Shown one piece after another: positions 40,826 through 60,075 of a DNA stretch of 64,000 nucleotides. The stretch is from the NCBI RefSeq assembly GCF_003018235.1, contig NZ_CP027437.1, one strand, 5' to 3'. The position numbers and the translations under genes were made by a program. The notes beneath the pieces are model-generated. The model saw nothing but the letters and a program-made list of their open reading frames with translations. It was not told the origin of the DNA and made no database searches. Origin of the DNA: Escherichia coli (GTDB lineage Bacteria; Pseudomonadota; Gammaproteobacteria; Enterobacterales; Enterobacteriaceae). Within the stretch, counting starts at the first letter, position 1; each line of letters opens with the position of its first letter.

Positions 40826-41118
40826 TATAAATTTCTCATTAAATCTGGATAAATAAATTGACGGCGGCATCGGTAATTTGAGATTCGTTATCATTAAAAA
40901 CGAACACAGAAAAAATAAATATAAATTTGGTGAATGTTTTTGACATGATTAAATCCCTTTACTTTATTTATTTCTGACATAATACGTTACTCCCTTTTAT
41001 TATTAACGATCTGTTTCTCATTTTTCTTTAAACCTGCCTGTAACAGAATGTTAATAAGACATGATTGTTGTGGCAGGATCTGCAATAATTAACAATTATC
41101 CACTTCACAGAGAATGCT

Positions 41119-41790
41119 ATGCAGTACCCGATTAACGAGATGTTCCAGACCCTGCAAGGTGAGGGTTACTTTACCGGCGTCCCCGCTATTTTTATTCGTT
41201 TACAGGGATGCCCGGTCGGCTGTGCCTGGTGCGACACCAAACACACATGGGAAAAGCTTGAGGATCGGGAAGTTTCCCTTTTCAGCATTCTGGGTAAAAC
41301 GAAAGAGAGTGATAAGTGGGGAGCAGCAAGCAGTGAAGACTTACTCGCAGTCATCGGTCGTCAGGGATACACCGCGCGTCACGTGGTGATTACGGGTGGT
41401 GAGCCTTGCATTCATGATTTGCTACCACTGACTGATCTGCTCGAAAAGAACGGTTTTAGCTGCCAGATCGAAACCAGTGGTACTCATGAGGTACGCTGCA
41501 CACCGAATACCTGGGTTACCGTATCACCAAAGCTGAACATGCGCGGCGGCTATGAAGTGTTGTCACAGGCACTGGAGCGAGCCAACGAAATCAAGCATCC
41601 AGTGGGACGCGTACGTGATATTGAAGCACTGGATGAACTTTTGGCGACGCTGACCGATGATAAACCGCGAGTCATTGCACTGCAGCCGATTAGCCAAAAG
41701 GATGATGCCACACGATTGTGCATTGAAACCTGCATTGCGCGTAATTGGCGTTTGTCGATGCAAACACATAAATATCTAAATATTGCCTGA
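41119..41790 (+). CDS. queE: 7-carboxy-7-deazaguanine synthase (radical SAM)
   Basis: 223-aa ORF with a CxxxCxxC-type cluster (CPVGCAWC). Confidence 0.92.
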   Translation: MQYPINEMFQTLQGEGYFTGVPAIFIRLQGCPVGCAWCDTKHTWEKLEDREVSLFSILGKTKESDKWGAASSEDLLAVIGRQGYTARHVVITGGEPCIHDLLPLTDLLEKNGFSCQIETSGTHEVRCTPNTWVTVSPKLNMRGGYEVLSQALERANEIKHPVGRVRDIEALDELLATLTDDKPRVIALQPISQKDDATRLCIETCIARNWRLSMQTHKYLNIA

Positions 41791-42129
41791 TTAAACATTT
41801 ATAAGCGTTATAAATGGGTGGAACCTGTAAAGATTTCTACTCATTTATATTGTTTGTCGCCTCTGAAAACTCCTCCATTTTACCCATCCAGGGCTAATCA
41901 TTAGCATTCTCTACAAATTCTGCGGCATTAATTTTTCGCTGGAGTGAAAATTATTGCGGTAAAGTTTGGTAGATTTTAGTCGGTATAGGATTACTTTAAA
42001 TATTTAGCTTTTCAATCAATGAATTAAGTGCTCTTTAACATAATGGATGTGTTGTTTGTGTGATACTGTAAAGTTGGTAGATTGTGACTGGCTTAAAAAA
42101 TCATTAATTAATAATAGGTTATGTTTAGA
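41791..42129 (+). promoter_or_regulatory. AT-rich CRISPR leader
   Basis: About 340 bp of very AT-rich non-coding DNA ending ...TAATAGGTTATGTTTAGA immediately before the first repeat, the arrangement typical of type I-E leaders. Confidence 0.6.
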
Positions 42130-42438
42130 GAGTTCCCCGCGCGAGCGGGGATAAACCGGCCGTCGCCGGATCAGCCTGGCTATGCCAGCAGAGTTCCCCG
42201 CGCCAGCGGGGATAAACCGGACGAACAAAATAAAAACCAACTGAATGATGCGAGTTCCCCGCGCCAGCGGGGATAAACCGCGAACCCTTGAACCGATAAG
42301 GGCGCTGTTTTGGAGTTCCCCGCGCCAGCGGGGATAAACCGGATAGGTGTTACACATATGACCTGGCACTGGCGAGTTTCCCGCGCCAGCGGGGATAACC
42401 ATTCAGGTATGTTCAGGCCGGGCAGTTTCCCGCCCGGC
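42130..42438 (+). CRISPR. Orphan CRISPR array with type I-E 29-bp repeats (5 repeats, 4 x 32-bp spacers, plus a degenerate terminal unit)
   Basis: Repeats GAGTTCCCCGCGCCAGCGGGGATAAACCG at 42130-42158 (one C-to-G change), 42191-42219, 42252-42280, 42313-42341, and a degenerate 42374-42401; spacers at 42159-42190, 42220-42251, 42281-42312, 42342-42373. A further partial repeat-like GTTTCCCGCCCGGCC lies at 42425-42439 within a GC hairpin. No cas gene occurs in the window. Confidence 0.9.
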
Positions 42439-42447
42439 CTTCCTCAC

Positions 42448-43925
42448 TTACGCATTCGACCAGCTCTGGATCGAATCCGCATTCCCCAATTCCCCATGCA
42501 TCACTTCATACGATTTTTTCAGGATTACATCAGTATGTTTGGTTAACTCCTTGAAAATGCTTTTATTCATCGCGTCGTAGCGTTTGGCACTGTTCTCAAC
42601 AGGCATAAAGATATCTTTCACGCGAACCATTTTGTCGACAGCCGTTGCGTAATCCGGGTATAGCCCCAGACCTACCGCCGTATTAATCGCTGCCCCCAGA
42701 CTTGCACAACCATTAATGGCGTTACGGCGTGCCGGAAGGTTGAACACGTCGGCAAAAATCTGCATAAACAGATCGCTGTTCGAACCGCCGCCAGTAATGA
42801 TCACATGCTTTGCAAAGTGATTCATTTCATTACACATATTGTCGTAATTGTTCTTCAGCGTCAGGCCACGCTTTCCAGTATCGAACGATATATCCATGCG
42901 TAATCCATGCTGGAATCAAAGCCAATCATAATCCCGCGTTTGTACGGTTCCCACGGATTGGTCAGCCAGTCCAGCACCGTCATCAGACCATTACAGCCTG
43001 GCGGCACACAAGACGCTTTTTTGTTGAGCAAATCTTCCGGTGAAAGATCCTGTGCTTTGGCATCCTGAATTAACGACTCGCCTAACATGTCGCGTAGCCA
43101 GCTCACCGTCCACATGCCTTTGCGAATACCGTAACCTTCATACAGCAAGGTTTGCGGAATAGAAGACATAATCGGCCAGTACGCTACCGGATCTTTCGGT
43201 AGTAATTTGCCGTTCATCATCAACGCGATGTAAGTGCCAAGAGAAATTACCGCAGTTTCATCATCCAGTAACCCGGCTCCCAGTGCTTCTACCGGTTTAT
43301 CACTGGTGGTACAAACAACCGGCAGCCCAGCCGGGAAATGTGTCGCCAGCGCGGCTTGAGGAGTGATATGCCCAAGAACAGTGCCCGGCATTTGCACATC
43401 AAACAGCATATGACGGGGGATATTAAACTTCTCCATGACTGCGGCATCTTCACTCCATGCCCAGGTCTTATAATCCACCGGCCACTGACCAAAATAGTTG
43501 GCGATATTGTCTTTAAACTCGCCGGTTAAGCGATGCGTCAGATAACCTGAAAAAGAGGTGACATATGCCACGTCAGGATTCGTATGTTCGTAAGGGCGTG
43601 TAACGCGTGCATCCTGCCAGCTAATCAACGGCGCAGCTGGCGTGCCATCGGCTTTCAATAACGCACGGCAGCAACGGATGGATCCCAGACCAATACCGAC
43701 AATATCTTCTTTATTCCCGGCAAACTGACTCATCAAATCGTGACCGGCAAAACATAATGATGCCCATAAATCGTCGTCAGGATGTTCTGCGGTATCGGCA
43801 TCTGGCGTGTGCATCGGCTGCAATAAGCCTTTGCCTTCGCAAACCACATTACCTTCCAGATCATACATCACCACTTTTGTGCTCTGACTTCCGCCATCAA
43901 TCCCTATGATGTATTTTTTCGACAT
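42448..43925 (-). pseudogene. ygcE: FGGY-family sugar kinase split by an apparent frameshift
   Basis: N-terminal 354 codons (42861..43925) and C-terminal 149-codon ORF (42448..42897) are in different frames. The N-frame ends ...AWIYRSILESVA-stop and the other frame continues ...LTLKNNYDNMCNE...ITGGGSNSDLF, both matching conserved FGGY kinase regions, so the switch lies near 42861-42867 (GGCC run). Confidence 0.7.
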
Positions 43926-43951
43926 GATTTTTCTCCTGTAATTTTCTGGAC

Positions 43952-45229
43952 TTACTTGCTGCTAGCCATAGCAGGGGCGCTATCAGCAGTACGAATTTTT
44001 TGGAACAGCAAAAAGGTAAAGACGATCACCATGGCAAGCGCCGCCATGCCCATCAGCCACATATTGCGGTAGGCTTCTGCAGCGGGCAGGGTGTCTTGCC
44101 AGTAGCCGATAATCGGGTAAACGAAGACATCCGGCAGGAATCCAATCACCGAACAAATACCTACCGTGGTGCCCATAATGTAAGACGGTGTTCTCGCTTC
44201 GCCAGGGCAGGCCCAGTACAGCCCGCGTGAGGCGTAACAGGTGAATCCCAGCAGTAAAATCAGGCCAATCCCCATCGCGACCGATTGCGGGTTAGAGTTC
44301 GTGACGAGCAGGGCAGTTAACGCCAGCAAGCCGAGTACGGAAAGGATTTGGATCACGCGGGTAGGGGATTTCACTTTGCTGTAAGTGGTGATAATGCCGC
44401 CAAGCGGACCGCACAGTGCGCGGAAGATTTTGTTGATCACAATCCCCATGTAGCTCGCCGCCACCAGCGACATACCGTACATTTCGGTCAGATAGTTGGT
44501 GGAGTAACTCAGAATGGCGTAGATGGTGAAGACACCAAAAATCACCATGCTGCAATACCAGGTGGTGCTGATGCGCAAAACGGCCAGGATGTCGCTAAGC
44601 TGGAATGACTGTTTTTCTTCGTTATTGGTATTGCGTAGGTTGTTGTTATCGCTAACAAAAAACCAACACAAAATGCCCAGCAGAATGTAAACCACACTAT
44701 AGATAATAATGACCGTTTTCAGGCTGGCGCTGTCATCCGGTGCAAAGCGAGAAAAGACCCACATGGTAAACACCGCCAGCGACATTACACCGACGCCGCG
44801 CAGCCCTTCCATCCAGCCCATAATTTTCCCTTGCTCGCTATGATCGCCCAGCAACGATGCGGCTTTAATCGACACCGACCACAGCATTAAAATCGTCGTT
44901 ATCGCAAAGGCGACCTGAATACAGAGCATTACCCACAGCGGTGGATATGTTGCCATTAACAGACCCAGTAATCCGGTAATGATCATCGCGGAAGTAATCA
45001 TTTTGCGGTGTGAAAATTTATCGGCAATAACGCCGCTGGGGGCATAAAGAATAATAGCCGCAATACCAAAGGTACTCATTATTAAACCTATCTCGGTATT
45101 GCTGAATCCCATAAATTTCGCCATGGGAATTTGATAAATATAACGTAAATAAGCCAGGTCGAAACTAACGCCGCCGCTAAAACTAATTATCGCGAGGGTT
45201 ATCCAACGGCGATATGAGTTGTGTTGCAT
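43952..45229 (-). CDS. yqcE: MFS transporter
   Basis: 425-aa polytopic membrane ORF in the same orientation as ygcE. Confidence 0.85.
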   Translation of the reverse strand: MQHNSYRRWITLAIISFSGGVSFDLAYLRYIYQIPMAKFMGFSNTEIGLIMSTFGIAAIILYAPSGVIADKFSHRKMITSAMIITGLLGLLMATYPPLWVMLCIQVAFAITTILMLWSVSIKAASLLGDHSEQGKIMGWMEGLRGVGVMSLAVFTMWVFSRFAPDDSASLKTVIIIYSVVYILLGILCWFFVSDNNNLRNTNNEEKQSFQLSDILAVLRISTTWYCSMVIFGVFTIYAILSYSTNYLTEMYGMSLVAASYMGIVINKIFRALCGPLGGIITTYSKVKSPTRVIQILSVLGLLALTALLVTNSNPQSVAMGIGLILLLGFTCYASRGLYWACPGEARTPSYIMGTTVGICSVIGFLPDVFVYPIIGYWQDTLPAAEAYRNMWLMGMAALAMVIVFTFLLFQKIRTADSAPAMASSK

Positions 45230-45547
45230 ATCGTATTCCCATTTGTAATAGACAAAAAAAAGAGAAAAGTAAGCCGCCCTTTCAGGTGGATTACTTTTCT
45301 CAGGTCTCTAGTAATTGCAATAAGAAATAACATGGAAAGTAGTGGTGTTGTGTGAGAGTAATCACGCTTCTGCTTTTTAAAATTATTTGACAATTCGAAT
45401 ATCACACTGTGATTACGATCACATTAGCGATTATGCCCTTATGATAAAAATTATCTCCAGTTACCAGAGATAATGAGAAAGGTAACTTCCCTCTCGCGGG
45501 GGAAGTTACCTTTCTTTTTTTTTGCCTTACGGAAATTGGAGCTAACT

Positions 45548-46333
45548 ATGTCAATCGAATCTCTCAATGCGTTCTCAATGGATTTTTTCTCCCTGAAAGG
45601 TAAAACCGCAATTGTTACCGGCGGGAATAGCGGTTTAGGCCAGGCATTTGCCATGGCGCTGGCCAAAGCAGGCGCAAATATCTTTATTCCAAGCTTCGTT
45701 AAAGATAACGGTGAAACAAAGGAAATGATTGAAAAACAGGGTGTTGAGGTGGACTTCATGCAGGTGGATATCACCGCAGAAGGCGCGCCGCAGAAGATAA
45801 TCGCCGCCTGTTGCGAACGTTTCGGTACCGTCGATATTCTGATTAACAATGCCGGTATTTGTAAGCTGAATAAGGTGCTGGACTTCGGTCGTGCCGACTG
45901 GGACCCGATGATTGATGTGAACCTGACCGCCGCATTCGAGTTAAGCTATGAAGCTGCAAAAATTATGATCCCGCAGAAAAGCGGTAAAATCATTAATATC
46001 TGTTCATTATTCTCTTACTTAGGTGGACAATGGTCACCTGCATATTCTGCCACTAAACATGCTCTTGCCGGGTTCACCAAAGCTTATTGTGATGAACTAG
46101 GTCAATATAATATTCAGGTAAATGGTATTGCTCCGGGATATTACGCTACCGATATCACTCTGGCGACCCGTAGTAATCCAGAAACTAACCAGCGCGTTCT
46201 TGATCATATTCCGGCAAACCGTTGGGGCGATACTCAGGATTTAATGGGCGCAGCCGTATTCCTCGCAAGTCCGGCATCGAATTATGTCAACGGACATTTA
46301 TTAGTGGTTGATGGCGGTTATTTAGTGCGCTAA
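45548..46333 (+). CDS. ygcW: Short-chain dehydrogenase/reductase (SDR)
   Basis: Start placed at MSIESLN... (261 aa); Rossmann motif TGGNSGLG and catalytic YxxxK (YSATK). Confidence 0.85.
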   Translation: MSIESLNAFSMDFFSLKGKTAIVTGGNSGLGQAFAMALAKAGANIFIPSFVKDNGETKEMIEKQGVEVDFMQVDITAEGAPQKIIAACCERFGTVDILINNAGICKLNKVLDFGRADWDPMIDVNLTAAFELSYEAAKIMIPQKSGKIINICSLFSYLGGQWSPAYSATKHALAGFTKAYCDELGQYNIQVNGIAPGYYATDITLATRSNPETNQRVLDHIPANRWGDTQDLMGAAVFLASPASNYVNGHLLVVDGGYLVR

Positions 46334-46402
46334 TCCATAACGGTGGTTTCTGTTTTCTCTTATTAATGATTATTCCATTTTTATTATCAGGAAGGAATTA
46401 CT

Positions 46403-47857
46403 ATGTCTTTATCTCGCGCAGCGATTGTCGACCAGCTAAAGGAAATTGTTGGTGCAGATCGCGTAATTACCGATGAAACAGTATTAAAGAAGAACAGTAT
46501 TGACCGTTTTCGCAAATTTCCGGATATTCATGGCATTTATACTTTGCCGATTCCGGCAGCGGTCGTAAAACTCGGTTCCACAGAACAAGTATCCCGTGTG
46601 CTGAATTTTATGAATGCGCACAAAATTAACGGTGTGCCGCGTACCGGTGCTTCCGCTACCGAAGGTGGGCTGGAAACCGTTGTGGAAAACTCGGTGGTGC
46701 TCGACGGCTCTGCCATGAATCAAATCATTAATATTGATATTGAGAATATGCAGGCCACGGCGCAATGCGGAGTTCCGCTGGAAGTGCTGGAAAACGCGTT
46801 GCGTGAAAAAGGTTACACCACGGGGCATTCTCCGCAGTCAAAGCCGCTGGCGCAGATGGGCGGCCTGGTAGCAACCCGCAGTATCGGGCAGTTCTCCACA
46901 CTCTACGGCGCAATCGAAGATATGGTCGTTGGTCTGGAAGCAGTATTGGCTGATGGCACCGTAACACGCATTAAAAACGTACCACGCCGCGCGGCAGGCC
47001 CGGACATTCGTCACATCATCATCGGCAACGAAGGTGCATTGTGCTATATCACTGAAGTAACTGTGAAAATCTTTAAGTTCACCCCGGAAAACAACCTCTT
47101 CTACGGCTATATCCTGGAAGACATGAAAACCGGCTTCAACATCCTGCGTGAAATCATGGTGGAAGGGTATCGTCCGTCGATCGCTCGTTTGTATGACGCT
47201 GAAGATGGCACCCAACACTTCACCCATTTTGCTGACGGAAAATGCGTGCTGATCTTTATGGCTGAAGGTAACCCTCGCATTGCGAAGGCGACGGGCGAAG
47301 GGATTGCTGAAATCGTGGCACGTTACCCGCAATGCCAGCGAGTGGACAGCAAGCTGATCGAAACCTGGTTTAACAACCTGAACTGGGGACCGGATAAAGT
47401 GGCCGCTGAACGTGTGCAGATCCTCAAAACCGGCAACATGGGCTTTACCACCGAAGTGTCCGGCTGCTGGAGCTGCATCCACGAAATCTACGAAAGCGTT
47501 ATTAACCGTATTCGTACCGAGTTCCCGCACGCCGACGACATCACCATGCTGGGCGGTCACTCCTCTCACAGCTACCAGAACGGCACCAACATGTACTTCG
47601 TTTACGACTACAACGTTGTTGACTGTAAGCCGGAAGAGGAAATCGACAAGTACCACAATCCGCTCAACAAAATCATCTGCGAAGAAACCATTCGCCTCGG
47701 CGGTTCGATGGTGCACCACCACGGTATTGGTAAACATCGCGTTCACTGGAGCAAACTGGAACACGGCAGCGCGTGGACGTTGCTGGAAGGTCTGAAAAAA
47801 CAGTTCGATCCTAACGGCATTATGAATACGGGTACTATCTATCCGATTGAAAAATAA
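46403..47857 (+). CDS. ygcU: FAD-linked oxidase (FAD-binding PCMH-type domain)
   Basis: 484-aa ORF resembling glycolate oxidase GlcD / alkyl-DHAP synthase-type flavoproteins. Confidence 0.88.
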   Translation: MSLSRAAIVDQLKEIVGADRVITDETVLKKNSIDRFRKFPDIHGIYTLPIPAAVVKLGSTEQVSRVLNFMNAHKINGVPRTGASATEGGLETVVENSVVLDGSAMNQIINIDIENMQATAQCGVPLEVLENALREKGYTTGHSPQSKPLAQMGGLVATRSIGQFSTLYGAIEDMVVGLEAVLADGTVTRIKNVPRRAAGPDIRHIIIGNEGALCYITEVTVKIFKFTPENNLFYGYILEDMKTGFNILREIMVEGYRPSIARLYDAEDGTQHFTHFADGKCVLIFMAEGNPRIAKATGEGIAEIVARYPQCQRVDSKLIETWFNNLNWGPDKVAAERVQILKTGNMGFTTEVSGCWSCIHEIYESVINRIRTEFPHADDITMLGGHSSHSYQNGTNMYFVYDYNVVDCKPEEEIDKYHNPLNKIICEETIRLGGSMVHHHGIGKHRVHWSKLEHGSAWTLLEGLKKQFDPNGIMNTGTIYPIEK

Positions 47858-47950
47858 TGTGTGAGGCAGCGTTCCGCTATGACGGGGCGTTGCCTTTTCG
47901 GCTTCTCAGGCGAGAAGCCGTTCTTATTACCGGACAATGAAGGGGTAAAG

Positions 47951-49288
47951 ATGAACACTTCACCGGTGCGAATGGATGATTTACCGCTTAACCGTTTTCA
48001 CTGTCGAATTGCTGCGCTCACTTTCGGCGCGCACCTGACCGACGGTTATGTTCTCGGCGTCATTGGTTACGCCATTATTCAGCTTACGCCCGCCATGCAA
48101 CTGACGCCGTTAATGGCGGGAATGATTGGCGGCTCGGCGCTCCTTGGTTTGTTTCTTGGCAGCCTGGTTCTTGGATGGATCTCCGACCATATTGGTCGGC
48201 AAAAAATCTTCACCTTCAGCTTTTTGCTGATTACGCTCGCTTCGTTTTTACAATATTTTGCCACCACGCCAGAGCATCTTATAGGACTACGCATTTTGAT
48301 TGGCATTGGTCTGGGAGGCGATTACTCAGTAGGTCACACTTTGCTGGCTGAATTTTCTCCGCGCCGCCATCGCGGTGTTTTGCTGGGCGCGTTCAGCGTG
48401 GTGTGGACCGTAGGCTATGTGTTAGCAAGTATTGCCGGACATCACTTTATTAGCGAAAGCCCGGAGGCCTGGCGCTGGCTGCTGGCATCGGCAGCTCTGC
48501 CCGCGTTGTTGATTACGTTATTACGCTGGGGAACGCCAGAATCGCCACGCTGGCTACTGCGCCAGGGGCGTTTTGCAGAAGCTCACGCTATCGTGCATCG
48601 CTATTTTGGTCCCCATGTTTTACTGGGCGATGAAGTGGCAACGGCGACCCATAAACACATCAAAACCTTGTTCTCTTCGCGCTACTGGCGGCGCACAGCG
48701 TTTAACAGCGTCTTCTTTGTCTGCCTCGTAATCCCATGGTTTGTGATTTATACCTGGCTGCCAACTATCGCCCAGACTATTGGACTGGAAGATGCGCTGA
48801 CTGCCAGCCTGATGCTTAATGCGTTGTTAATTGTGGGCGCGCTGTTGGGATTAGTTCTGACGCACCTGCTGGCACATCGCAAATTTTTGCTGGGAAGTTT
48901 TTTGCTGCTGGCGGCAACGCTGGTCGTGATGGCCTGTTTGCCTTCCGGCAGTTCATTAACGCTGCTGCTTTTTGTTCTCTTCAGCACCACCATTTCGGCA
49001 GTCAGTAATCTGGTGGGCATTTTGCCTGCGGAAAGTTTTCCTACTGACATTCGCTCGCTGGGCGTCGGTTTTGCCACCGCCATGAGTCGACTTGGCGCGG
49101 CGGTAAGTACTGGCCTGCTGCCGTGGGTGCTGGCGCAGTGGGGAATGCAAGTCACCTTATTGCTCCTGGCGGCAGTGTTGTTGGTTGGTTTTGTTGTGAC
49201 CTGGCTATGGGCACCAGAAACCAAAGCACTCCCGCTGGTGGCGGCGGGAAATGTAGGAGGTGCGAATGAACATTCTGTTAGCGTTTAA
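47951..49288 (+). CDS. ygcS: MFS transporter (sugar porter-like)
   Basis: Start placed at MNTSPVRMDD... (445 aa); 12-TM profile. Confidence 0.85.
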   Translation: MNTSPVRMDDLPLNRFHCRIAALTFGAHLTDGYVLGVIGYAIIQLTPAMQLTPLMAGMIGGSALLGLFLGSLVLGWISDHIGRQKIFTFSFLLITLASFLQYFATTPEHLIGLRILIGIGLGGDYSVGHTLLAEFSPRRHRGVLLGAFSVVWTVGYVLASIAGHHFISESPEAWRWLLASAALPALLITLLRWGTPESPRWLLRQGRFAEAHAIVHRYFGPHVLLGDEVATATHKHIKTLFSSRYWRRTAFNSVFFVCLVIPWFVIYTWLPTIAQTIGLEDALTASLMLNALLIVGALLGLVLTHLLAHRKFLLGSFLLLAATLVVMACLPSGSSLTLLLFVLFSTTISAVSNLVGILPAESFPTDIRSLGVGFATAMSRLGAAVSTGLLPWVLAQWGMQVTLLLLAAVLLVGFVVTWLWAPETKALPLVAAGNVGGANEHSVSV

Positions 49289-50045
49289 AGCCGAACCGGA
49301 TGCCGGAATGCTGGCGGAAAAAGAGTGGCAGGCGGCGGCTCAGGGTAATAGCGGACCGGATGTTTCGCTACTGCGAAGTTTACTCGGTGCTGATGAACAG
49401 GCTGCCGCCGCGCTGCTGTTGGCGCAGAGAAAAAACGGTACGTCGATGTCTTTAACCGCGTTGAGCATGGGGGATGAACGGGCGTTGCACTGGCTGCGCT
49501 ATCTCATGGCTCTTGGGTTTGAGGAAGCTGTATTGCTGGAGACGGCGGCAGATCTGCGCTTTGCGCCGGAATTTGTCGCTCGCCATATTGCCGAATGGCA
49601 GCGTCAGAATCCGCTGGATCTGATAATTACCGGCTGCCAAAGCAGCGAAGGGCAGAATGGGCAAACGCCATTTTTGCTGGCGGAAATGCTGGGCTGGCCC
49701 TGCTTCACCCAGGTGGAGCGTTTCACTCTCGACGCGCCGTTTATCACCCTCGAACAGCGTACTGAACATGGGCTGCGCTGTTGCCGGGTTCGCTTGCCTG
49801 CGGTGATTGCCGTGCGTCAGTGCGGTGAAGTGGCCTTGCCAGTACCGGGAATGCGTCAGCGAATGGCGGCGGGGAAAGCAGAAATTATCCGTAAAACTGT
49901 TGCTGCCGAATCGCCAGCGATGCTGTGTCTGCAACTGGCAAGAGCAGAGCAACGACGCGGAGCGACGCTGATTGATGGGCAAACGGTAGCAGAAAAAGCG
50001 CAAAAGCTATGGCAGGACTATTTACGCCAAAGGATGCAGCCATGA
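49266..50045 (+). CDS. ygcR: Electron transfer flavoprotein beta-subunit-like (FixA-like)
   Basis: About 259 aa; ETF beta-like sequence; the 3' end overlaps the ygcQ start. Confidence 0.85.
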   Translation: MNILLAFKAEPDAGMLAEKEWQAAAQGNSGPDVSLLRSLLGADEQAAAALLLAQRKNGTSMSLTALSMGDERALHWLRYLMALGFEEAVLLETAADLRFAPEFVARHIAEWQRQNPLDLIITGCQSSEGQNGQTPFLLAEMLGWPCFTQVERFTLDAPFITLEQRTEHGLRCCRVRLPAVIAVRQCGEVALPVPGMRQRMAAGKAEIIRKTVAAESPAMLCLQLARAEQRRGATLIDGQTVAEKAQKLWQDYLRQRMQP

Positions 50046-50902
50046 ATATCGCAATTGTGACAATAAATCAGGAGAATGCCGCAATAGTGAGCTGGCTGGC
50101 AGAACAGGATTTCAGCGGTTGTACCCTGGCACACTGGCAGATTGAACCTCAGCCCGCTGTGGCGGAACAGGTACTGGATGCGCTGGTGGAACAGTGGCAG
50201 CGAACGCCTGCGGACGTTGTTATCTTTCCGCCGGGAACGTTTGGCGATGAACTGTCGACCCGGCTGGCCTGGCGTTTACATGGTGCAAGCATCTGCCAGG
50301 TGACTTCGTTAGATATTCCAACCGTAAGCGTGCGCAAATCCCACTGGGGAAATGCGCTAACGGCGACGCTGCAAACAGAAAAACGCCCGCTATGCCTTTC
50401 GCTGGCACGTCAGGCGGGAGCAGATAAAAACGCCACGTTGCCCTCTGGTATGCAGCAACTGAACATTGTCCCAGGTGCGCTTCCCGACTGGCTGGTTAGC
50501 ATAGAAAACCTGAAAAATGTTACCCGCGACCCATTAGCTGAAGCCAGACGGGTGCTGGTGGTGGGGCAGGGCGGAGAGGCAGATAACCAGGAAATCGCTA
50601 TGCTGGTAGAAAAGCTGGGAGCCGAAGTGGGCTACAGTCGGGCGCGAGTGATGAACGGTGGCGTTGATGCCGAAAAAGTGATTGGTATTTCCGGACATTT
50701 GCTGGCACCTGAGGTGTGTATTGTTGTTGGCGCTTCCGGCGCAGCAGCGTTAATGGCGGGCGTACGCAATAGCAAGTTTGTGGTGGCGATTAATCATGAC
50801 GCCAGTGCAGCGGTATTTTCACAGGCAGATGTTGGCGTGGTTGATGACTGGAAAGTGGTGCTGGAGGCACTGGTGACAAACATTCACGCAGATTGCCAAT
50901 AA
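50042..50902 (+). CDS. ygcQ: Electron transfer flavoprotein alpha-subunit-like (FixB-like)
   Basis: Start placed at MNIAIVTINQ... (286 aa); ETF alpha C-terminal FAD-binding region. Confidence 0.85.
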   Translation: MNIAIVTINQENAAIVSWLAEQDFSGCTLAHWQIEPQPAVAEQVLDALVEQWQRTPADVVIFPPGTFGDELSTRLAWRLHGASICQVTSLDIPTVSVRKSHWGNALTATLQTEKRPLCLSLARQAGADKNATLPSGMQQLNIVPGALPDWLVSIENLKNVTRDPLAEARRVLVVGQGGEADNQEIAMLVEKLGAEVGYSRARVMNGGVDAEKVIGISGHLLAPEVCIVVGASGAAALMAGVRNSKFVVAINHDASAAVFSQADVGVVDDWKVVLEALVTNIHADCQ

Positions 50903-50950
50903 CGTGCAGCCGGATGATCCTGCCTACGGTTCTGGGCTGGGGACTTGTAA

Positions 50951-50983
50951 GCCTGATAAGACGCGTCAAGCGTCGCATCAGGC
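50951..50983. repeat. REP element (inside a small BIME-like cluster spanning about 50903-51020)
   Basis: GCCTGATAAGACGCGTCAAGCGTCGCATCAGGC palindrome between convergent ygcQ and ygcP; flanking GCCGGATG / GGATGTGGCGTGCAGCC motifs are also REP-like. Confidence 0.6.
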
Positions 50984-51049
50984 GCTGAATGTCGGATGTG
51001 GCGTGCAGCCTACAAATCACACCAAATTCAACTTGTTACGATTATCCCG

Positions 51050-51625
51050 TCAAAGCAATTTTTTCGCTAACGTCCAGACCCCGGTATTCGTGGTGGAAAG
51101 CGCCACGACACCTGCGTTAATCGCATTACGCGCATCTTCTTCATCGCACACCAGCCCGCCAGCAATCAGCGGTTGGCGGATTTTCTCCGTTACCCAGCCC
51201 AGCACTTTGGGCATACAGCCAGGCAGGATCTCAATACAATCCGGATTCGATTGCGCAACTTGCTTATCAATGTTGTGAAACGAAATCGAATCAACAATAA
51301 ACAGGCGATGAATACAGAAAAAACCTTCCGCTCTTGCCGCTTTCAGCATTGAGGCTTTGGTACTGATAATGCCGTCCGCCTCGGTCACCAGTTTCAGAAA
51401 CTGAATCACCACTTCTTTGTTCGATGCGCCTTCCAGCAAATCAACATGAATAAAGGCATATTTTCCGGCGTGTTTAATCTTTTTCACGATTTGACTAATG
51501 GTGCAGATATTGCCGTACAACACGGAAATAAACTGGCATTCAGAATCGATTGCCAGTTGCAGGCTGGCATTATCTTTAACGGCAGCAATCACCGGATTCT
51601 GGCGGAGCAGGTGTAAGAGGGGCAT
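51050..51625 (-). CDS. ygcP: GlpP-like glycerol-3-phosphate-responsive antiterminator family protein
   Basis: 191-aa ORF of the GlpP family. Confidence 0.85.
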   Translation of the reverse strand: MPLLHLLRQNPVIAAVKDNASLQLAIDSECQFISVLYGNICTISQIVKKIKHAGKYAFIHVDLLEGASNKEVVIQFLKLVTEADGIISTKASMLKAARAEGFFCIHRLFIVDSISFHNIDKQVAQSNPDCIEILPGCMPKVLGWVTEKIRQPLIAGGLVCDEEDARNAINAGVVALSTTNTGVWTLAKKLL

Positions 51626-51641
51626 AAATTATCCTTATTAT

Positions 51642-51902
51642 TTATCCAAAGCGGTAGGTGATGCCGAATCCGGAAGGCGGATAGCGCCACTGTTGTAGTG
51701 TTGATTCGTCACACAGCAAACGGCAGGTGCCACACTCCAGGCAGCCGCGATAATCAACGCGTAAGTCACCTTCCGGTGTGAGCGAAAAAAGACCTGCCGG
51801 ACAGGCGTTAATCAACCGTTGTACCATCTGACGCTCAACGGAGTCAGCCGGAACAATGTGCGGCGCATCGGCAACGCGCCAGAGATTACGGGCTACAGAC
51901 AT
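51642..51902 (-). CDS. ygcO: Ferredoxin-like protein (FixX-like)
   Basis: Start placed at MSVARNLWRV... (86 aa); Cys cluster CLECGTCRLLC. Confidence 0.8.
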   Translation of the reverse strand: MSVARNLWRVADAPHIVPADSVERQMVQRLINACPAGLFSLTPEGDLRVDYRGCLECGTCRLLCDESTLQQWRYPPSGFGITYRFG

Positions 51903-53164
51903 CGCAGACTCCTGATAACATCGCCCGCCAGATGCCACAGGCCGTGACGACGTAAATGACGCCAGAATAACTGGCGCAGCGATGGAACAGGTTTATCACC
52001 CTGATCCCATAAATCGCGGGAAATATCCTGCATTAACGCAGGCCACGCACGGTACCATCCAGGGCGTTGCAAAAGCGCCGGAACATGCTGATAACGTTGT
52101 AGAACATCCCATAGCAGGCTGCGCTCGACGTTGTGATGATAAAGCGGAAACAGATTTTGCGGCTCGCGGTGCTGGCAGGCGCTTATCAGCGTTTGTGCCG
52201 CCGCCTGTGCGCCAGCCAGCGCCATATCCATACCGCGCACGGAAATTCCGGTATTGACGCAACTGCGCAACGCATCGCCCACCAGCAGCCAGCCGTTACC
52301 GGCGTATTGCACTGGCATACTGTGCAAGCCACCTTCTGGCACCAGATGCGCACCATACTCCAGTGATTCCGTGTTTTTGATAAGCGGGCGCACTGCCGGA
52401 TGCGTTTTAAAGCGAGCCAGCAGCTCGCTTGCCGGAACACGACTTTGCGTAAGGGAAGAGAGCGGGCAAACAATCCCTAACGAGAGCGTTTGTTGATTAG
52501 TATAAAGAAATGCGCCGCCGGGTAAGTCATCACAGATCCTGCCGCTGAACAGCAACGCTGCGCCTTCGTTATTCTCCAGATGAAAACGTTCTTCAATAGC
52601 GGATGTTTCCAGCGACAGCACTTCTTTGATCCCCAACGCCATCGCTTCGCCAGCAGGACGAGTCACTAACCCGTGACGTTCAGCCAGGACGCTGTTGGCA
52701 CCTTCTGCCAGCACCACATAACGGGCGCGGAGAATATCGTCACCACAAATGACACCACACACCCTGCCGTTTTCTTCATACAGCGCATCCACCGTCGCAC
52801 CAGGGATGCATTCGACACCTTCTTTTTCGGCTTCGGCAACCAGCCACGGATCGAACCGTGCACGTAATACACTCCAGGATTCACCGCCGGGCTGTAAGCT
52901 GGAAAACGTCGTTGCGCCATCCGGCGTTAGCAGAGAAAGGCTTTCGTGAGTGATGCGTCGTTCAAGAGGCGCGGTCAGATGAAATTGCGGGAGGAGTTCC
53001 GCGAGTGCATGGGTATATAACCGCCCGCCGGAAAGATTTTTGCTGCCGGGGATTTCAGCGCGTTCCAGTAACAAAACGGATAAACCCGCTCGCGCGCAGT
53101 GTAACGCGCAAGCGGTGCCTGCAATACCGGCACCAATAATAATAATGTCGCAGTCGTCTTCCAT
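51893..53164 (-). CDS. ygcN: FAD-dependent oxidoreductase (ETF-quinone oxidoreductase / FixC-like)
   Basis: Start placed at MEDDCDIIIIGAGIAGTACA... (423 aa) with an N-terminal FAD dinucleotide-binding motif; the 3' end overlaps the ygcO start. Confidence 0.85.
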   Translation of the reverse strand: MEDDCDIIIIGAGIAGTACALHCARAGLSVLLLERAEIPGSKNLSGGRLYTHALAELLPQFHLTAPLERRITHESLSLLTPDGATTFSSLQPGGESWSVLRARFDPWLVAEAEKEGVECIPGATVDALYEENGRVCGVICGDDILRARYVVLAEGANSVLAERHGLVTRPAGEAMALGIKEVLSLETSAIEERFHLENNEGAALLFSGRICDDLPGGAFLYTNQQTLSLGIVCPLSSLTQSRVPASELLARFKTHPAVRPLIKNTESLEYGAHLVPEGGLHSMPVQYAGNGWLLVGDALRSCVNTGISVRGMDMALAGAQAAAQTLISACQHREPQNLFPLYHHNVERSLLWDVLQRYQHVPALLQRPGWYRAWPALMQDISRDLWDQGDKPVPSLRQLFWRHLRRHGLWHLAGDVIRSLRCL

Positions 53165-53241
53165 GTCATGCCCCGGATATCCAGAACACAACACCCTAAC
53201 ATAGCGTTACTTAAGGGAAATTGACCGCCGACATACTCTTA

Positions 53242-53607
53242 TCATTCGCCGCGATAGATGCAACCTGCGGTGCAGGTTTCTTTCACCATAACCGCACTTA
53301 ACAGCGGAACAACCGGTTTAACCTGATCCCAAATCCATTTTGCTAAAACTTCGCTGGTTGGGTTTTCCAGACCTGGAATATCATTGAGATAATGGTGATC
53401 GAGGCGCTCATAAGTTGGCTTAAACGCCGCTTTCAGTTCAGCGAAATCGATAATCCAGCCCGTATGCGGATCGACTTCCCCGGTAATTTCCAGTCGCACC
53501 ATAAAGGAATGCCCGTGCAGGCGACCACATTTATGCCCTTCCGGGACGTGTGGTAAGCGGTGAGCGGCTTCGAAGGTGAAATCTTTAAATAACGTGGTGG
53601 ACATCAT
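53242..53607 (-). CDS. queD: 6-carboxy-5,6,7,8-tetrahydropterin synthase
   Basis: Start placed at [10 protein letters not shown]... (121 aa); Zn-binding His residues and CGRLHGH motif. Confidence 0.9.
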
Positions 53608-53922
53608 AATTTCTCTACAGGACGATAAAACCGCCGTAGAGTACCGGAAAGGCTGTTTTTTCGCATTATCTAAAACGACTTTGTTGCGCAAAATCGCTGA
53701 TTTATCTTAATGATTGGCTAAATTCATTTGTTTTTCATTGGGTTGGTTAATCTGTTTTGTTGTTAAAGACTATTGCTAAAACAGGTTAGTCGATTTGGTT
53801 ATTAGTTATCGCTATCCCGTCTTTAATCCACACCGTTCACCCCGTTAACCTTACCTTCTCTTCTGTTTTATGGGCGCTGACAGGGCGCAGAAACAGCTTT
53901 GCTTACTGGAACATAACGACGC

Positions 53923-55722
53923 ATGACGACACAGGTCCCACCTTCCGCGTTGCTTCCGTTGAACCCGGAGCAACTGGCACGCCTTCAGGCGGCCACGACC
54001 GATTTAACTCCCACCCAGCTTGCCTGGGTTTCTGGCTATTTCTGGGGCGTGCTCAACCAGCAGCCTGCTGCGCTTGCAGCGACGCCAGCGCCCGCCGCAG
54101 AAATGCCGGGTATAACTATTATCTCCGCTTCGCAAACCGGCAATGCGCGCCGGGTTGCTGAAGCATTACGCGATGATTTATTAGCGGCAAAACTGAACGT
54201 TAAGCTGGTGAACGCGGGCGACTATAAATTCAAACAAATCGCCAGCGAAAAACTGCTTATCGTGGTGACGTCAACGCAAGGGGAAGGGGAACCGCCGGAA
54301 GAAGCCGTCGCGCTGCATAAGTTCCTGTTCTCCAAAAAAGCGCCAAAGCTGGAAAACACCGCGTTTGCCGTGTTTAGCCTCGGCGATAGTTCTTATGAAT
54401 TTTTCTGCCAGTCCGGGAAAGATTTTGACAGTAAGCTGGCGGAACTGGGCGGTGAACGCCTGCTCGACCGTGTCGATGCCGACGTTGAATACCAGGCTGC
54501 TGCCAGCGAGTGGCGCGCCCGCGTGGTTGATGCGCTTAAATCGCGTGCGCCTGTCGCGGCACCTTCGCAATCCGTCGCTACTGGCGCGGTAAATGAAATC
54601 CACACCAGCCCGTACAGCAAAGACGCGCCGCTGGTGGCGAGCCTCTCTGTTAACCAGAAAATTACCGGGCGTAACTCTGAAAAAGACGTTCGCCATATCG
54701 AAATTGACTTAGGTGACTCTGGCCTGCGTTACCAGCCGGGTGACGCGCTGGGCGTCTGGTATCAGAACGATCCGGCACTGGTGAAAGAACTTGTCGAACT
54801 GCTGTGGCTGAAAGGCGATGAAACTGTCACCGTTGACGGCAAAACCCTGCCGCTGAACGAAGCGCTACAGTGGCACTTCGAACTGACCGTCAACACCGCC
54901 AACATTGTTGAGAACTATGCCACGCTTACCCGCAGCGAAACGCTGCTGCCGCTGGTGGGCGATAAAGCGAAGTTACAGCATTACGCCGCGACCACGCCGA
55001 TTGTCGACATGGTGCGTTTCTCTCCGGCGCAACTGGATGCCGAAGCGCTGATTAATCTGCTGCGCCCGCTGACCCCGCGCCTGTATTCCATCGCCTCCTC
55101 GCAGGCGGAAGTCGAGAACGAAGTACACGTCACCGTTGGTGTGGTGCGTTACGACGTGGAAGGCCGCGCCCGTGCCGGTGGTGCCTCCAGCTTCCTCGCG
55201 GACCGCGTGGAAGAAGAGGGCGAAGTCCGCGTATTTATCGAACATAACGACAACTTCCGCCTGCCAGCCAACCCAGAAACCCCGGTGATTATGATTGGCC
55301 CAGGCACCGGCATCGCGCCGTTCCGAGCCTTTATGCAGCAGCGCGCCGCTGACGAAGCGCCGGGTAAAAACTGGCTGTTCTTTGGCAATCCGCACTTTAC
55401 GGAAGATTTCCTCTACCAGGTGGAATGGCAGCGCTACGTCAAAGAGGGCGTGCTGACGCGTATCGATCTTGCCTGGTCGCGCGATCAAAAAGAAAAAATT
55501 TACGTACAAGACAAACTGCGCGAACAGGGCGCGGAGCTGTGGCGCTGGATCAATGACGGTGCCCACATTTATGTCTGCGGCGACGCTAATCGCATGGCGA
55601 AAGACGTTGAGCAGGCACTTCTGGAAGTGATTGCCGAATTTGGTGGCATGGACACCGAAGCGGCGGATGAATTTTTAAGTGAGCTGCGCGTAGAGCGCCG
55701 TTATCAGCGAGATGTCTACTAA
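53923..55722 (+). CDS. cysJ: Sulfite reductase [NADPH] flavoprotein alpha-component
   Basis: 599-aa ORF with flavodoxin and FAD/NADPH reductase domains. Confidence 0.95.
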
Positions 55723-57434
55723 TGAGCGAAAAACATCCAGGGCCTTCAGTGGTCGAAGGAAAACTGACAGACGCCGAGCGCATGAAGCTTGAAAGCAACT
55801 ACCTGCGCGGCACCATTGCGGAAGATTTAAACGACGGTCTGACCGGTGGTTTTAAGGGCGACAACTTCCTGCTGATCCGCTTCCACGGCATGTATCAGCA
55901 GGATGACCGCGACATCCGCGCCGAACGTGCTGAACAGAAGCTGGAGCCACGTCATGCAATGCTGTTGCGCTGTCGTCTGCCGGGTGGGGTGATTACCACC
56001 AAACAGTGGCAGGCGATCGATAAATTTGCCGGTGAAAACACCATCTATGGCAGCATTCGCCTGACCAACCGCCAGACGTTTCAGTTCCACGGCATTCTGA
56101 AAAAGAACGTCAAACCGGTGCACCAGATGCTGCACTCGGTCGGTCTTGATGCGCTGGCGACTGCTAACGACATGAACCGTAACGTGCTGTGCACTTCGAA
56201 CCCGTTCGAGTCGCAGCTGCACGCGGAAGCCTATGAATGGGCGAAGAAAATCTCTGAACATCTGCTGCCTCGTACCCGCGCGTATGCAGAGATCTGGCTC
56301 GATCAGGAAAAAGTCGCCACTACTGATGAAGAGCCGATCCTTGGTCAGACCTACCTGCCGCGTAAGTTCAAAACCACGGTAGTGATCCCGCCGCAGAACG
56401 ATATCGATCTGCACGCCAACGACATGAACTTCGTGGCGATCGCCGAAAACGGCAAGCTGGTGGGCTTTAACCTGCTGGTGGGCGGTGGGCTTTCCATCGA
56501 GCACGGCAACAAGAAAACCTACGCCCGCACCGCGAGTGAGTTTGGCTATCTGCCGCTGGAGCATACACTGGCAGTGGCGGAAGCCGTCGTGACAACTCAG
56601 CGTGACTGGGGTAACCGAACCGATCGTAAAAATGCCAAAACCAAATACACGCTGGAGCGCGTGGGGGTTGAGACGTTTAAAGCGGAAGTGGAGCGTCGCG
56701 CGGGGATCAAATTTGAACCGATCCGTCCGTATGAGTTCACCGGACGCGGCGATCGTATTGGTTGGGTTAAGGGCATTGATGATAACTGGCACCTGACGCT
56801 GTTTATCGAAAATGGTCGCATCCTTGATTATCCGGGGCGTCCGCTGAAAACTGGCCTGCTGGAGATCGCGAAGATCCACAAAGGTGATTTCCGCATTACG
56901 GCGAACCAGAATCTGATCATCGCCGGTGTGCCGGAAAGCGAGAAAGCGAAGATCGAGAAGATCGCCAAAGAGAGCGGGTTAATGAATGCCGTCACGCCGC
57001 AGCGTGAAAACTCAATGGCCTGCGTGTCATTCCCGACTTGCCCGCTGGCGATGGCCGAAGCCGAGCGTTTCCTGCCGTCTTTTATCGACAACATCGATAA
57101 TTTAATGGCGAAACATGGTGTCAGCGATGAGCATATCGTGATGCGTGTAACAGGCTGCCCGAACGGTTGTGGTCGCGCGATGCTGGCGGAAGTGGGCCTG
57201 GTGGGTAAAGCGCCGGGTCGCTACAACCTGCATCTTGGCGGCAACCGCATTGGGACACGTATCCCACGGATGTATAAAGAAAACATCACCGAGCCGGAAA
57301 TCCTGGCGTCGCTTGATGAACTGATAGGGCGCTGGGCGAAAGAGCGCGAAGCGGGTGAAGGCTTCGGCGACTTTACGGTGCGTGCGGGCATCATTCGCCC
57401 GGTGCTCGATCCGGCGCGCGATTTGTGGGATTAA
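55722..57434 (+). CDS. cysI: Sulfite reductase [NADPH] hemoprotein beta-component
   Basis: 570-aa ORF; start overlaps the cysJ stop; siroheme/4Fe-4S Cys motifs ([10 protein letters not shown]...CPNGC). Confidence 0.95.
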
Positions 57435-57454
57435 CCATCAGCCCGGTCTTGTAG

Positions 57455-57486
57455 GCCTGATAAGACGCGTGAGCGTCGCATCAGGC
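57455..57486. repeat. REP element between cysI and cysH
   Basis: GCCTGATAAGACGCGTGAGCGTCGCATCAGGC, nearly identical to the REP at 50951-50983. Confidence 0.6.
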
Positions 57487-57507
57487 AAGGCAAACAGTGA
57501 GGAATCT

Positions 57508-58242
57508 ATGTCCAAACTCGATCTAAACGCCCTGAACGAACTGCCGAAGGTAGATCGCATTCTGGCGCTGGCAGAAACTAACGCCGAACTGGAAAAACTG
57601 GATGCTGAAGGCCGCGTTGCCTGGGCGCTGGATAATCTGCCCGGTGAATATGTACTTTCTTCCAGTTTCGGCATTCAGGCGGCGGTGAGCCTGCATCTGG
57701 TGAATCAGATTCACCCGGATATCCCGGTGATCCTGACCGATACGGGTTATCTGTTCCCGGAAACCTACCGCTTTATTGACGAGTTAACGGACAAACTCAA
57801 GCTCAACCTGAAAGTGTACCGCGCTACCGAAAGCGCCGCCTGGCAGGAAGCGCGCTACGGCAAACTGTGGGAGCAGGGTGTTGAAGGCATTGAAAAGTAC
57901 AATGACATCAACAAAGTCGAACCGATGAACCGGGCGCTGAAAGAACTGAATGCGCAAACGTGGTTTGCTGGCCTGCGCCGCGAACAATCCGGCAGTCGCG
58001 CCAATTTACCGGTGCTGGCAATTCAGCGTGGCGTATTTAAAGTGCTGCCGATTATCGACTGGGATAACCGAACGATATATCAGTATCTGCAAAAACATGG
58101 CCTGAAATATCACCCATTATGGGACGAAGGATATTTATCGGTCGGTGATACCCATACAACCCGTAAATGGGAACCCGGCATGGCGGAAGAAGAAACGCGT
58201 TTCTTTGGCTTAAAAAGAGAATGTGGTTTACACGAAGGGTAA
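57508..58242 (+). CDS. cysH: Phosphoadenosine phosphosulfate (PAPS) reductase
   Basis: Track ORF extends upstream through the REP; start placed at ATG 57508 ([14 protein letters not shown]...), 244 aa. Confidence 0.92.
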
Positions 58243-58260
58243 ATGTTATCCGGATAAATT

Positions 58261-58298
58261 AAACGCCTCTGTCAGAAATGATGGGGGCGTTTTTATTT
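58261..58298 (+). terminator. Probable cysH terminator
   Basis: AAACGCC...GGCGTTT stem followed by TTATTTT, about 20 bp after the cysH stop; the stem is short and the loop long, so this is tentative. Confidence 0.4.
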
Positions 58299-58507
58299 TG
58301 CGAGCAGCATTCCTGATTTTAAACGTGAACGCCGCTGGAAGAATCAACAGGTATAGAATGGTGTCGGGTGCTTGAGGCTGTCTGGCGTTAAGCATTCGCG
58401 AGGTTCCAGATGGACAAAAGCCCCAGGCGATATTTCTATCAACCTGAGGCCAGCGTTCGAACCCAAACAATTCGAATGTTAGTCTCTTCTTTGCAGGGAG
58501 GCAAGAC

Positions 58508-58660
58508 ATGCTGACAAAATATGCCCTTGTGGCAATCATAGTGCTGTGTTTTACAGTACTGGGATTCACGCTGATGGTAGGCGACTCGTTGTGTGAGTTG
58601 AGTATCAGAGAACGTGGTATGGAGTTTAAGGCAGTTCTCGCTTACGAATCGAAGAAGTAG
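58508..58660 (+). CDS. hokX: Hok-family type I toxin (small membrane-depolarising peptide), positionally the hokX/sokX locus
   Basis: 50-codon ORF absent from the ORF track (under 60 aa): [50 protein letters not shown], with a single TM helix, the Hok signature DSLCE and C-terminal AYES; Shine-Dalgarno GGAGG 6 nt upstream. The symbol is inferred from position next to cysH. Confidence 0.8.
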
Positions 58661-58786
58661 CCACCACGCGGGGGTAAAACCCCGCGTACTGAATTGTTAA
58701 AGTTTGGCCTCCTGCACCCCTTTTTTATACTCTGTTTCTGGTGGCATTGATTTCCTGCAGGCAAGGGAGTAATCATTTCAAACCCA

Positions 58787-59824
58787 TCAAGACGCCTTCG
58801 CCAGCTCCTTCACCAGCGGTAGCATTATCCGCATAACATCACGGCAGCGACGTTCTATTCTTCCTGGAAGTGCCTTATCAATATGTTGTTGATTATCCAG
58901 TCTTACGTCATGCCAGCTATTTCCCGCAGGGAATGCAGCTGTTTTTGCGCGTTGCTGATAACCATCCTTATTCCCAAGATTCCAATTTGTTGCTTCTACC
59001 GAAAGTACGGCAATACCGGCTTTGTCGAAAACTTCGGCGTCATTACAACAGCCAGTACCCTTCGGATAATTTTTATTCAAACCCGGATTGGTCGTTGCGG
59101 CAATTCCATGACTACGCGCAATTGCCAGCGCCCTGTCGCGCGTTAATTTCCTTACTGCTTCAGGGGTTTTTACGCCGCTGTTGAAATACAATTTATCGCC
59201 AACAATTAAGTTATCGAGATTAATCACCAGCAGCGTATTTTTCTTTTCGGTGTCACTCATCCGCTTGAGTAAATTCTCAGCACCTAATTTCCCTTCCTCT
59301 TCACCACTGGTCGCCACAAATCGAATACCATACTCGGTAGGCGTATTTTTCAGGCGTTCTGCCAATTCCAGCATGACACCTAAACCTGCAGCGTTATCAT
59401 CCATTCCTTGTAACGTCAGTCCGCCGAGATTGGCATCGGCGTCAGCATCGCTCAGCGGGGCGTAAGTATCCAGATGCGCCATAATGATGATCTGCTGCGG
59501 CGCTTTGCCTTCATGAGCGGCAATCACCGTACTTCCCGTCACGTTATGCCAGCTCTTGCGATTATCGCGGGCGGTATAAATATACCGACTATTAAATGTC
59601 CGAATATCACTGCGATAACCCATTTGCTGAAACTGTTGGCGAATATAATCGGCAGATAACATTTCTGCTGGAGTTCCGGTCATGCGTCCCGGAAAGAAAG
59701 TAGCAATATGTCGTGCCTGAGTATTAGCAAAATCGCCAGGTTTAGATGACGAGGCGTGTACGGGGAGAATAAAGCATACGCCGAGCGCCAGGGCAGCGGT
59801 ACGGTGGCGCAATGCGGAAAACAT
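58787..59824 (-). CDS. iap: Alkaline phosphatase isozyme conversion aminopeptidase (M28 family)
   Basis: 345-aa ORF with signal peptide. Confidence 0.9.
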   Translation of the reverse strand: MFSALRHRTAALALGVCFILPVHASSSKPGDFANTQARHIATFFPGRMTGTPAEMLSADYIRQQFQQMGYRSDIRTFNSRYIYTARDNRKSWHNVTGSTVIAAHEGKAPQQIIIMAHLDTYAPLSDADADANLGGLTLQGMDDNAAGLGVMLELAERLKNTPTEYGIRFVATSGEEEGKLGAENLLKRMSDTEKKNTLLVINLDNLIVGDKLYFNSGVKTPEAVRKLTRDRALAIARSHGIAATTNPGLNKNYPKGTGCCNDAEVFDKAGIAVLSVEATNWNLGNKDGYQQRAKTAAFPAGNSWHDVRLDNQQHIDKALPGRIERRCRDVMRIMLPLVKELAKAS

Positions 59825-60075
59825 AGTGAGTCCTTAAATACCATGCAAATTTTTTTACCGCCATAGTATGAAACTGCCGATGCGCTAAAACAATTTCAAA
59901 TCTTCCTAAACGCCCGAAATCCGGTGCCTTAAGCACTTTTTGATATTAGCTTTGCCAAATCGTTATTCCGTTAAGGAACTACTCATTCTAATTGGTAATT
60001 TCATTCGTTCTCCTGCGCTCCCTATAGTCGAAACATCTGATGGCAAGAAAATAGCGGTATTGCAAAGGAACGGTT

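Follow-up and report, generated by a model that had tools for sequence, protein, structure and literature searches.

Almendros et al. (2014, mBio) catalogued nine arrangements of the CRISPR-I locus of Escherichia coli (PMC3903273). In that catalogue hok/sok is found in all strains except E2 strains and the segment IG3 is common to E1 and cas-less strains, and an earlier description of one cas-less arrangement, arrangement B, is cited there as reference 19 (PMC3903273). A 2025 survey of urinary E. coli reported that 54% of strains have no CRISPR-Cas components in this region, that hok/sokX adjoins cysH, that strains without CRISPR-Cas systems belong predominantly to phylogroup B2, and that K-12 keeps only the sok/mok part of the unit (PMC12736100). 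The presence or absence of the I-E cas genes in E. coli is a well-studied polymorphism, which is used in typing and in debates on the weight of CRISPR. Reference 19 of the 2014 catalogue is reportedly Díez-Villaseñor et al. 2010, and Touchon & Rocha 2010 are said to have covered the cas-less locus as well. Here we compare with these arrangements the interval between cysH and iap in a 64-kb stretch of E. coli DNA, which we refer to as the window. The sequence comparisons make it very probable that the interval is a natural cas-less allele of the CRISPR-I locus, namely the arrangement B of Almendros et al. 2014.

Content of the cysH–iap interval

In the window cysH and iap are convergent, and 544 bp lie between them (58243–58786). 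A reading made earlier from the letters of this DNA (the sequence-only reading) had placed the end of cysH at 58242 and that of iap at 58787, both of which stand, but had given the gap as 545 bp; it had listed as contents a terminator-like hairpin and a hok-like gene, which are indeed there, and had missed the sok/mok leader region. In order, the elements are cysH, its terminator, a complete hok/sok unit, 46 allele-specific bp, 13 shared bp and the iap stop codon (positions are those of the window):

57508–58242, + strand, cysH (PAPS reductase), the left flank; 244-aa ORF with its TAA at 58240–58242; the orthologue is annotated cysH in RefSeq genomes
58261–58299, + strand, cysH intrinsic-terminator-like hairpin and T run; a 14-pair stem, then TTATTTTG; the hairpin itself is 58261–58292
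58366–58523, + strand, hok mRNA leader, target region of the antisense Sok RNA; Rfam RF01794 'sok', full model 1–157
58410–58514, + strand, mok-like ORF, overlapping the hok start
58508–58660, + strand, hok toxin gene, 50 aa, an intact ORF in the ORF list; the orthologous gene is 'Hok/Gef family protein' in RefSeq
58666–58727, + strand, hok mRNA 3′ region; hairpin 58666–58687, element GGCCTCCTGCACCC at 58706–58719, T run
58728–58773, no strand assigned, 46 bp specific to the cas-less allele and not alignable to cas+ strains
58774–58786, no strand assigned, 13 bp by the iap stop, common to cas+ and cas-less Escherichia (the 'IG6' side)
58787–59824, − strand, iap (aminopeptidase), the right flank; 345-aa ORF, annotated iap in RefSeq genomes

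In both cas+ references, a K-12-type genome and a cas-E1 genome, the gap between cysH and iap is 9.9 kb and holds cas3, casA, casB, cas7, cas5, cas6e, cas1 and cas2 together with an annotated CRISPR array. The K-12 map that the sequence-only reading had given, with cas3 to cas2 and an array at this site, agrees with the K-12-type genome. A tblastn search with 15 Cas proteins (from K-12-type E2 and from E1-type genomes) gave no match at E ≤ 1e-3 over the whole 64-kb window, and the window has no match to the E1 or E2 regions upstream of cas3. The I-E repeat, sought at ≤3 mismatches over the entire window, was found at 42130–42341 only and not between cysH and iap. Within 58716–58786 there is no vestigial repeat, as the real sequence aligns locally with a score no different from the mean of its shuffles, 62–83% of which score at least as high; the candidate of a degenerate repeat remnant by iap was rejected when alignments to the consensus and to terminal degenerate repeats proved no better than those of shuffles. 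FRT and loxP sites were not found at ≤3 mismatches, the interval contains no IS element and is colinear over 99% of its length with other cas-less strains, and an Rfam scan returned sok only, plus a sub-threshold ctRNA match on the cysH terminator. The repeat, tblastn, FRT/loxP and alignment searches thus all bear out the earlier observation that the locus shows no repeat, cas fragment, IS element or FRT- or loxP-like scar.

The hok unit appears to be complete, with an intact ORF, a leader matched by Rfam and a structured mRNA with a 3′ element that ends just before the breakpoint. Rfam model RF01794 ('sok') scores 111.1 bits over 58366–58523 (gathering score 59) and, since the match is on the plus strand, marks the leader of the hok mRNA, the part that Sok acts against. 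The best NCBIfam family for the Hok peptide is HokA (E = 9e-16, 57.7 bits, under the curated cut-off of 89), and the peptide reaches 41 bits with the NCBIfam Hok subfamily, for which the cut-off is 73. The predicted fold of 58366–58727 is that of a structured RNA (z = −3.5), in which the 3′ element GGCCUCCUGCACCC (58706–58719) is predicted to pair with the hok Shine-Dalgarno/ribosome-binding region. Pairing of a 3′ element with the ribosome-binding region is the kind of 3′-end control known for hok mRNAs.

Some 16 kb from the interval the window carries a short CRISPR array:

42060–42400, + strand, CRISPR-II (CRISPR2.3), between queE/ygcF and ygcE; AT-rich leader, four good I-E repeats, one degenerate terminal repeat and four spacers

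The I-E repeat matches are at 42130, 42191, 42252 and 42313, the degenerate fifth repeat occupies 42374–42400, and a related strain has a CRISPR annotated at the same ygcE–queE site. The sequence-only reading had described this array as having no cognate cas genes in the window; the array is real, and with all 15 Cas proteins negative over the 64 kb it is an orphan within the window. Of the parts of a complete I-E system (cas3, the Cascade genes, cas1–cas2 and an array), the window holds the array only. A search for protospacers of the four spacers in phage and plasmid collections gave only repeat-driven matches to CRISPR arrays in mislabelled records, and no complete genome with the whole four-spacer set was found. 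Many cas-less strains have at ygcE–queE an array of exactly equal length, with only 79% identity, so that most spacers differ. The CRISPR-II array may still be transcribed. By analogy with I-E systems, however, an array without Cas6e/Cascade, Cas3 and Cas1–Cas2 would yield no mature crRNA, interference or spacer acquisition, and this one would be a frozen relic unless compatible cas genes lie elsewhere in the genome. For annotation, the strain is to be recorded as lacking an I-E cassette at the canonical site, and the ygcE–queE array is to be treated as an orphan relic and not as evidence of active immunity.

Breakpoints and the 46 allele-specific base pairs

The sequence-only reading had proposed that the interval be aligned to K-12 and to cas-minus genomes in order to locate the breakpoints. 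Such alignment places them at ~58727 and ~58774 relative to a cas-E1 strain and at 58510 relative to a K-12-type genome. The match to the cas-E1 strain extends from cysH to ~58727 and picks up again at ~58774. The stretch 58666–58727 is the last in common with cas-E1 strains (the 'IG3' side), and the left edge falls just 3′ of the hok transcription unit, 7–8 nt past the last paired base of the hok mRNA, which indicates that the hok unit is complete and untouched. The right edge is 13 bp from the iap stop codon; in cas+ strains these 13 shared bp come directly after the terminal degenerate repeat. Between the two edges, the 46 bp stand where cas-E1 strains hold ~9.4 kb comprising IG4, cas3 to cas2, the leader and the CRISPR2.1 array. 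The arrangement relative to the K-12-type genome is different: sequence is shared up to the hok ATG (58510), with 97.4% identity over 58243–58510, and stops exactly after it, so that hok is not intact at the K-12 cysH–iap site. In K-12-type (cas-E2) genomes (L002 12259–12262 in the one aligned corresponds to window 58508–58511) the hok coding sequence and 3′ end are replaced by the E2 module, and the sok/mok leader stays. The cysH terminator-like hairpin is kept in all Escherichia alleles aligned.

We next consider what the 46 bp resemble. A short-word BLAST search of 87 loci, among them the E1 and E2 cassettes and nine further I-E cassettes, gave matches in Escherichia cas-less loci only, and the 46 bp show no similarity to the I-E loci of 11 cas+ species. 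Because they match no E1, E2 or other I-E locus among those searched and contain no recognisable repeat remnant, the cas-less allele does not appear to derive by deletion alone from any cas+ arrangement of the present day. Two other identities for the 46 bp were tried and rejected. As an ancestral iap 3′ end of the type seen in Atlantibacter-type loci, they gave 8 of 13 aligned bases by manual count, which is not significant; as an iap terminator or small RNA, they gave a minus-strand fold of z = +0.9, and Rfam has nothing there. A sigma-70-like match on the plus strand at 58704–58731 (TTGGCC, 16 nt, TATACT) straddles the left breakpoint, with its −10 hexamer mostly within the 46 bp, and would read antisense into iap; the sigma-70-like sites are consensus matches only, two having been found where 1.0 was expected.

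Distribution, natural origin and direction of change

A 121-bp sequence spanning the junction (58690–58810) is present at full length in 1,128 of 5,426 complete E. coli genomes, in one copy per carrier genome and on the chromosome in every case; the carriers include Nissle 1917 (EcN) and isolates of clinical, human, animal and environmental origin. Of the genomes, 3,371 match 80% or more of the interval, hok included, and the remaining 2,054 match less; K-12-type genomes, which match to the hok ATG only, fall in this <80% group. The 61 bp at 58726–58786 are identical in five cas-less strains (the window, AST215, AR_0013, EcN and p4A), whereas the cysH-proximal part of the interval varies among cas-less strains, from 91 to 98%. 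The contrast between an identical 61 bp and a variable cysH-proximal flank indicates a single origin of the junction followed by recombination of the flank. All E. coli carriers examined have the junction unchanged.

The first 24 kb of the window (1–24 kb) are 99.4% identical to the best of the 5,426 complete E. coli genomes. The ygcE–cysJIH–iap stretch (40000–59900) reaches 98.0–98.2% at most with any of them, the range that the best complete genome also gives over 40–64 kb; over 53–59.9 kb identity to complete E. coli genomes does not exceed 98.2%, and when profiled at 2 kb, identity to the nearest strain falls to 95–97.5% at 40–44 kb and 48–52 kb. Judged from these identities, the strain would be either a mosaic or a member of a lineage poorly represented among finished genomes. 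Among the strains nearest to the window, E. coli ETEC1738 has an IS4-like IS421 transposase annotated within the stretch matching 53000–59900. Between relA and mazG (35196–35779) the window carries mazE-like (82 aa) and mazF-like (111 aa) ORFs, named from gene order; in the most similar complete genome, HCP5S3_I2, only ~95 bp separate relA and mazG, which indicates that the mazEF-like pair may be present or absent among close relatives.

The same architecture and junction occur outside E. coli proper, in three other species-level lineages, E. whittamii, 'E. coli' E69 and Escherichia sp. E1V33. In these, 50- and 61-bp stretches spanning the 46 bp are 82–92% identical to the window, and the flanking genes show 90–95% nucleotide identity to it. 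The cas-less allele therefore seems either to predate, or to have crossed, species boundaries within Escherichia, and the finding that other Escherichia species have the junction in common, with divergence at the level of species, argues that the allele is old. A further 'E. coli' genome from a separate species-level lineage (SCPM-O-B-8794, 92–95% nucleotide identity) has eight repeats by iap, hok by cysH and no cas genes in an interval of ~2.3 kb, an intermediate type of cas loss unlike that in the window. None of the titles listed by a literature search concerned the cas-less junction in cryptic clades of Escherichia.

A search for iap, with one genome taken per species, returned 80 Enterobacteriaceae loci. 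In 33 of these iap lies directly by cysH (35–170 bp apart) and in 11 there is an I-E cassette with an array; nine have hok only, seven have solitary I-E repeats without cas, one has hok and repeats without cas, seven hold other inserts and 12 are unresolved. This spread of states suggests that the site is, throughout the family, a hotspot at which I-E systems are gained and lost. I-E cas genes and an array lie at exactly the cysH–iap site in E. albertii, Salmonella and several further genera. Atlantibacter, Lelliottia and Pseudocitrobacter have cysH–hok–iap without cas, but in these genera hok abuts iap and the 46 bp are missing, which marks them as related but different arrangements. The seven loci with solitary repeats (in Citrobacter, Superficieibacter, Phytobacter, Buttiauxella and others) have one to three I-E-type repeats between iap and cysH and no cas genes within 10 kb, and the repeats look like remnants of separate losses of the cassette at this one site. 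In Pseudocitrobacter faecalis and a Pseudocitrobacter MAG, cysH is 91–96% and the cysH–hok intergenic region 93% identical to the window in nucleotides, and Hok is 100% identical in amino acids. This similarity over cysH–hok is at the level of other Escherichia species; iap reaches only 73% and cysN 80%. The pattern looks like transfer of the cysH–hok segment between genera, with a breakpoint at the hok–iap junction.

How the allele arose can be approached from these distributions. Most probably an ancestral I-E cassette was lost, or was exchanged by allelic replacement, after which the allele may have been kept or spread through homologous recombination of its flanks. We favour loss as the direction of change because this very site holds the cassette in E. 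albertii and Salmonella, because the relic repeats in seven cas-less species point to recurrent loss here, and because the published parsimony scenario has arrangement A (cas-E1) as the oldest (PMC3903273). Since the 46 bp are unmatched and no repeat remnant is left, loss as opposed to a cassette that was never inserted is favoured rather than proven.

The opposite history, in which the cas-less hok–iap state is the older one and the I-E module (IG4 to the array) was inserted between the hok 3′ end and iap in other lineages, displacing the 46 bp, is in our judgement unlikely, although several observations speak for it. The 46 bp are unlike any I-E module examined and hold no repeat relic, the junction is found in at least four Escherichia species-level lineages, and cas-less states are widespread in the family, with iap directly by cysH in 33 of the 80 species and the cysH–hok–iap order without cas in Atlantibacter, Lelliottia and Pseudocitrobacter. 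The distant hok-only genera, however, are without the 46 bp and hence do not carry the same allele, and the removal of 46 bp is not normal for an insertion. The cassette at the same site in E. albertii and Salmonella, and the published scenario in which the cas-E1 arrangement is the oldest in E. coli (PMC3903273), also stand against it. Loss of the cassette thus remains the reading that we favour. A related suggestion, which we offer tentatively and think somewhat doubtful, is that the junction did not come from a modern cas+ arrangement by deletion but is ancient and goes back beyond E. coli itself. It would then be either kept beside cas+ alleles in several Escherichia species, as a long-lived, possibly balanced trans-species polymorphism for the presence or absence of CRISPR-Cas, or the state of the genus before CRISPR.

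The sequence-only reading had taken the locus for a natural lack of the I-E system rather than an engineered deletion, and the 1,128 carriers among 5,426 genomes, the occurrence in other Escherichia lineages and the lack of a scar support this. The idea of a laboratory strain whose cas operon and array were removed by recombineering or by Cre/FLP excision has in its favour solely that the cassette is absent whole and cleanly, and we assign it a vanishingly small probability: no FRT or loxP site is present at ≤3 mismatches, the identical junction is found in natural and clinical complete genomes and the same junction in other Escherichia species, hok is intact in the window but missing from K-12-type laboratory backgrounds, and the window is at most 98–99.4% identical to any complete genome and so is no derivative of K-12, B or W. 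Misassembly, which the sequence-only reading had named as a finding that would overturn it, is equally improbable, for although CRISPR arrays and IS elements are able to break assemblies, the junction offers no repeat at which the cas region could have been collapsed or dropped, the 46 allele-specific bp are absent from cas+ genomes, and the same sequence occurs in over a thousand finished genomes. On these sequence comparisons both engineering and misassembly can be considered excluded for practical purposes.

Relation to described loci

The putative toxin gene of the interval can be compared with the hok/sok type I toxin-antitoxin loci (hok/sok of plasmid R1 and the chromosomal hokA–E and hokX/sokX). 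Like these, it has an overlapping mok-like frame, a conserved structured leader that fits the Rfam sok model, and a 3′ element complementary to the ribosome-binding region; its 50-aa Hok/Gef-like peptide scores under the curated NCBIfam cut-offs and is a candidate member of the family. With the CRISPR-I locus of E. coli K-12 MG1655 (cas-E2, with sokX by cysH) the window shares the flanking genes, the cysH terminator and the sok/mok leader to the hok start codon. K-12, however, has cas3 to cas2 and a 763-bp array annotated as CRISPR at this site, and replacement of its hok coding sequence begins at the base that follows the ATG; the window has no such cassette, and its hok is intact. In contrast to the cas-less groups of the 2025 urinary survey, which are without an array at ygcE–queE (PMC12736100), the window combines arrangement B with a short CRISPR-II array.

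The closest match is arrangement B. As in that arrangement, the window is without cas-E genes, the CRISPR2.1 array, its leader and an IS element; hok/sok is kept by cysH, IG3 is present, and the E1- and E2-specific IG4 and IG5 are absent. A CRISPR-II array can still be present in arrangement B, and we see no structural difference between it and the window; the difference lies in the haplotype, for which no complete RefSeq E. coli genome comes closer than 98.2% identity over cysJIH–iap. Taken together, these comparisons identify the cas-less allele as a described polymorphism that is common in E. coli, of which the present finding is a correct re-discovery. To the described allele the present analysis adds that the 46 bp are unlike any I-E module and are without a vestigial repeat. 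The addition to the history of the locus is a modest one: the presence of the junction in other Escherichia species, together with 46 unrelated bp at the site, bears on whether arrangement B originated by simple deletion.
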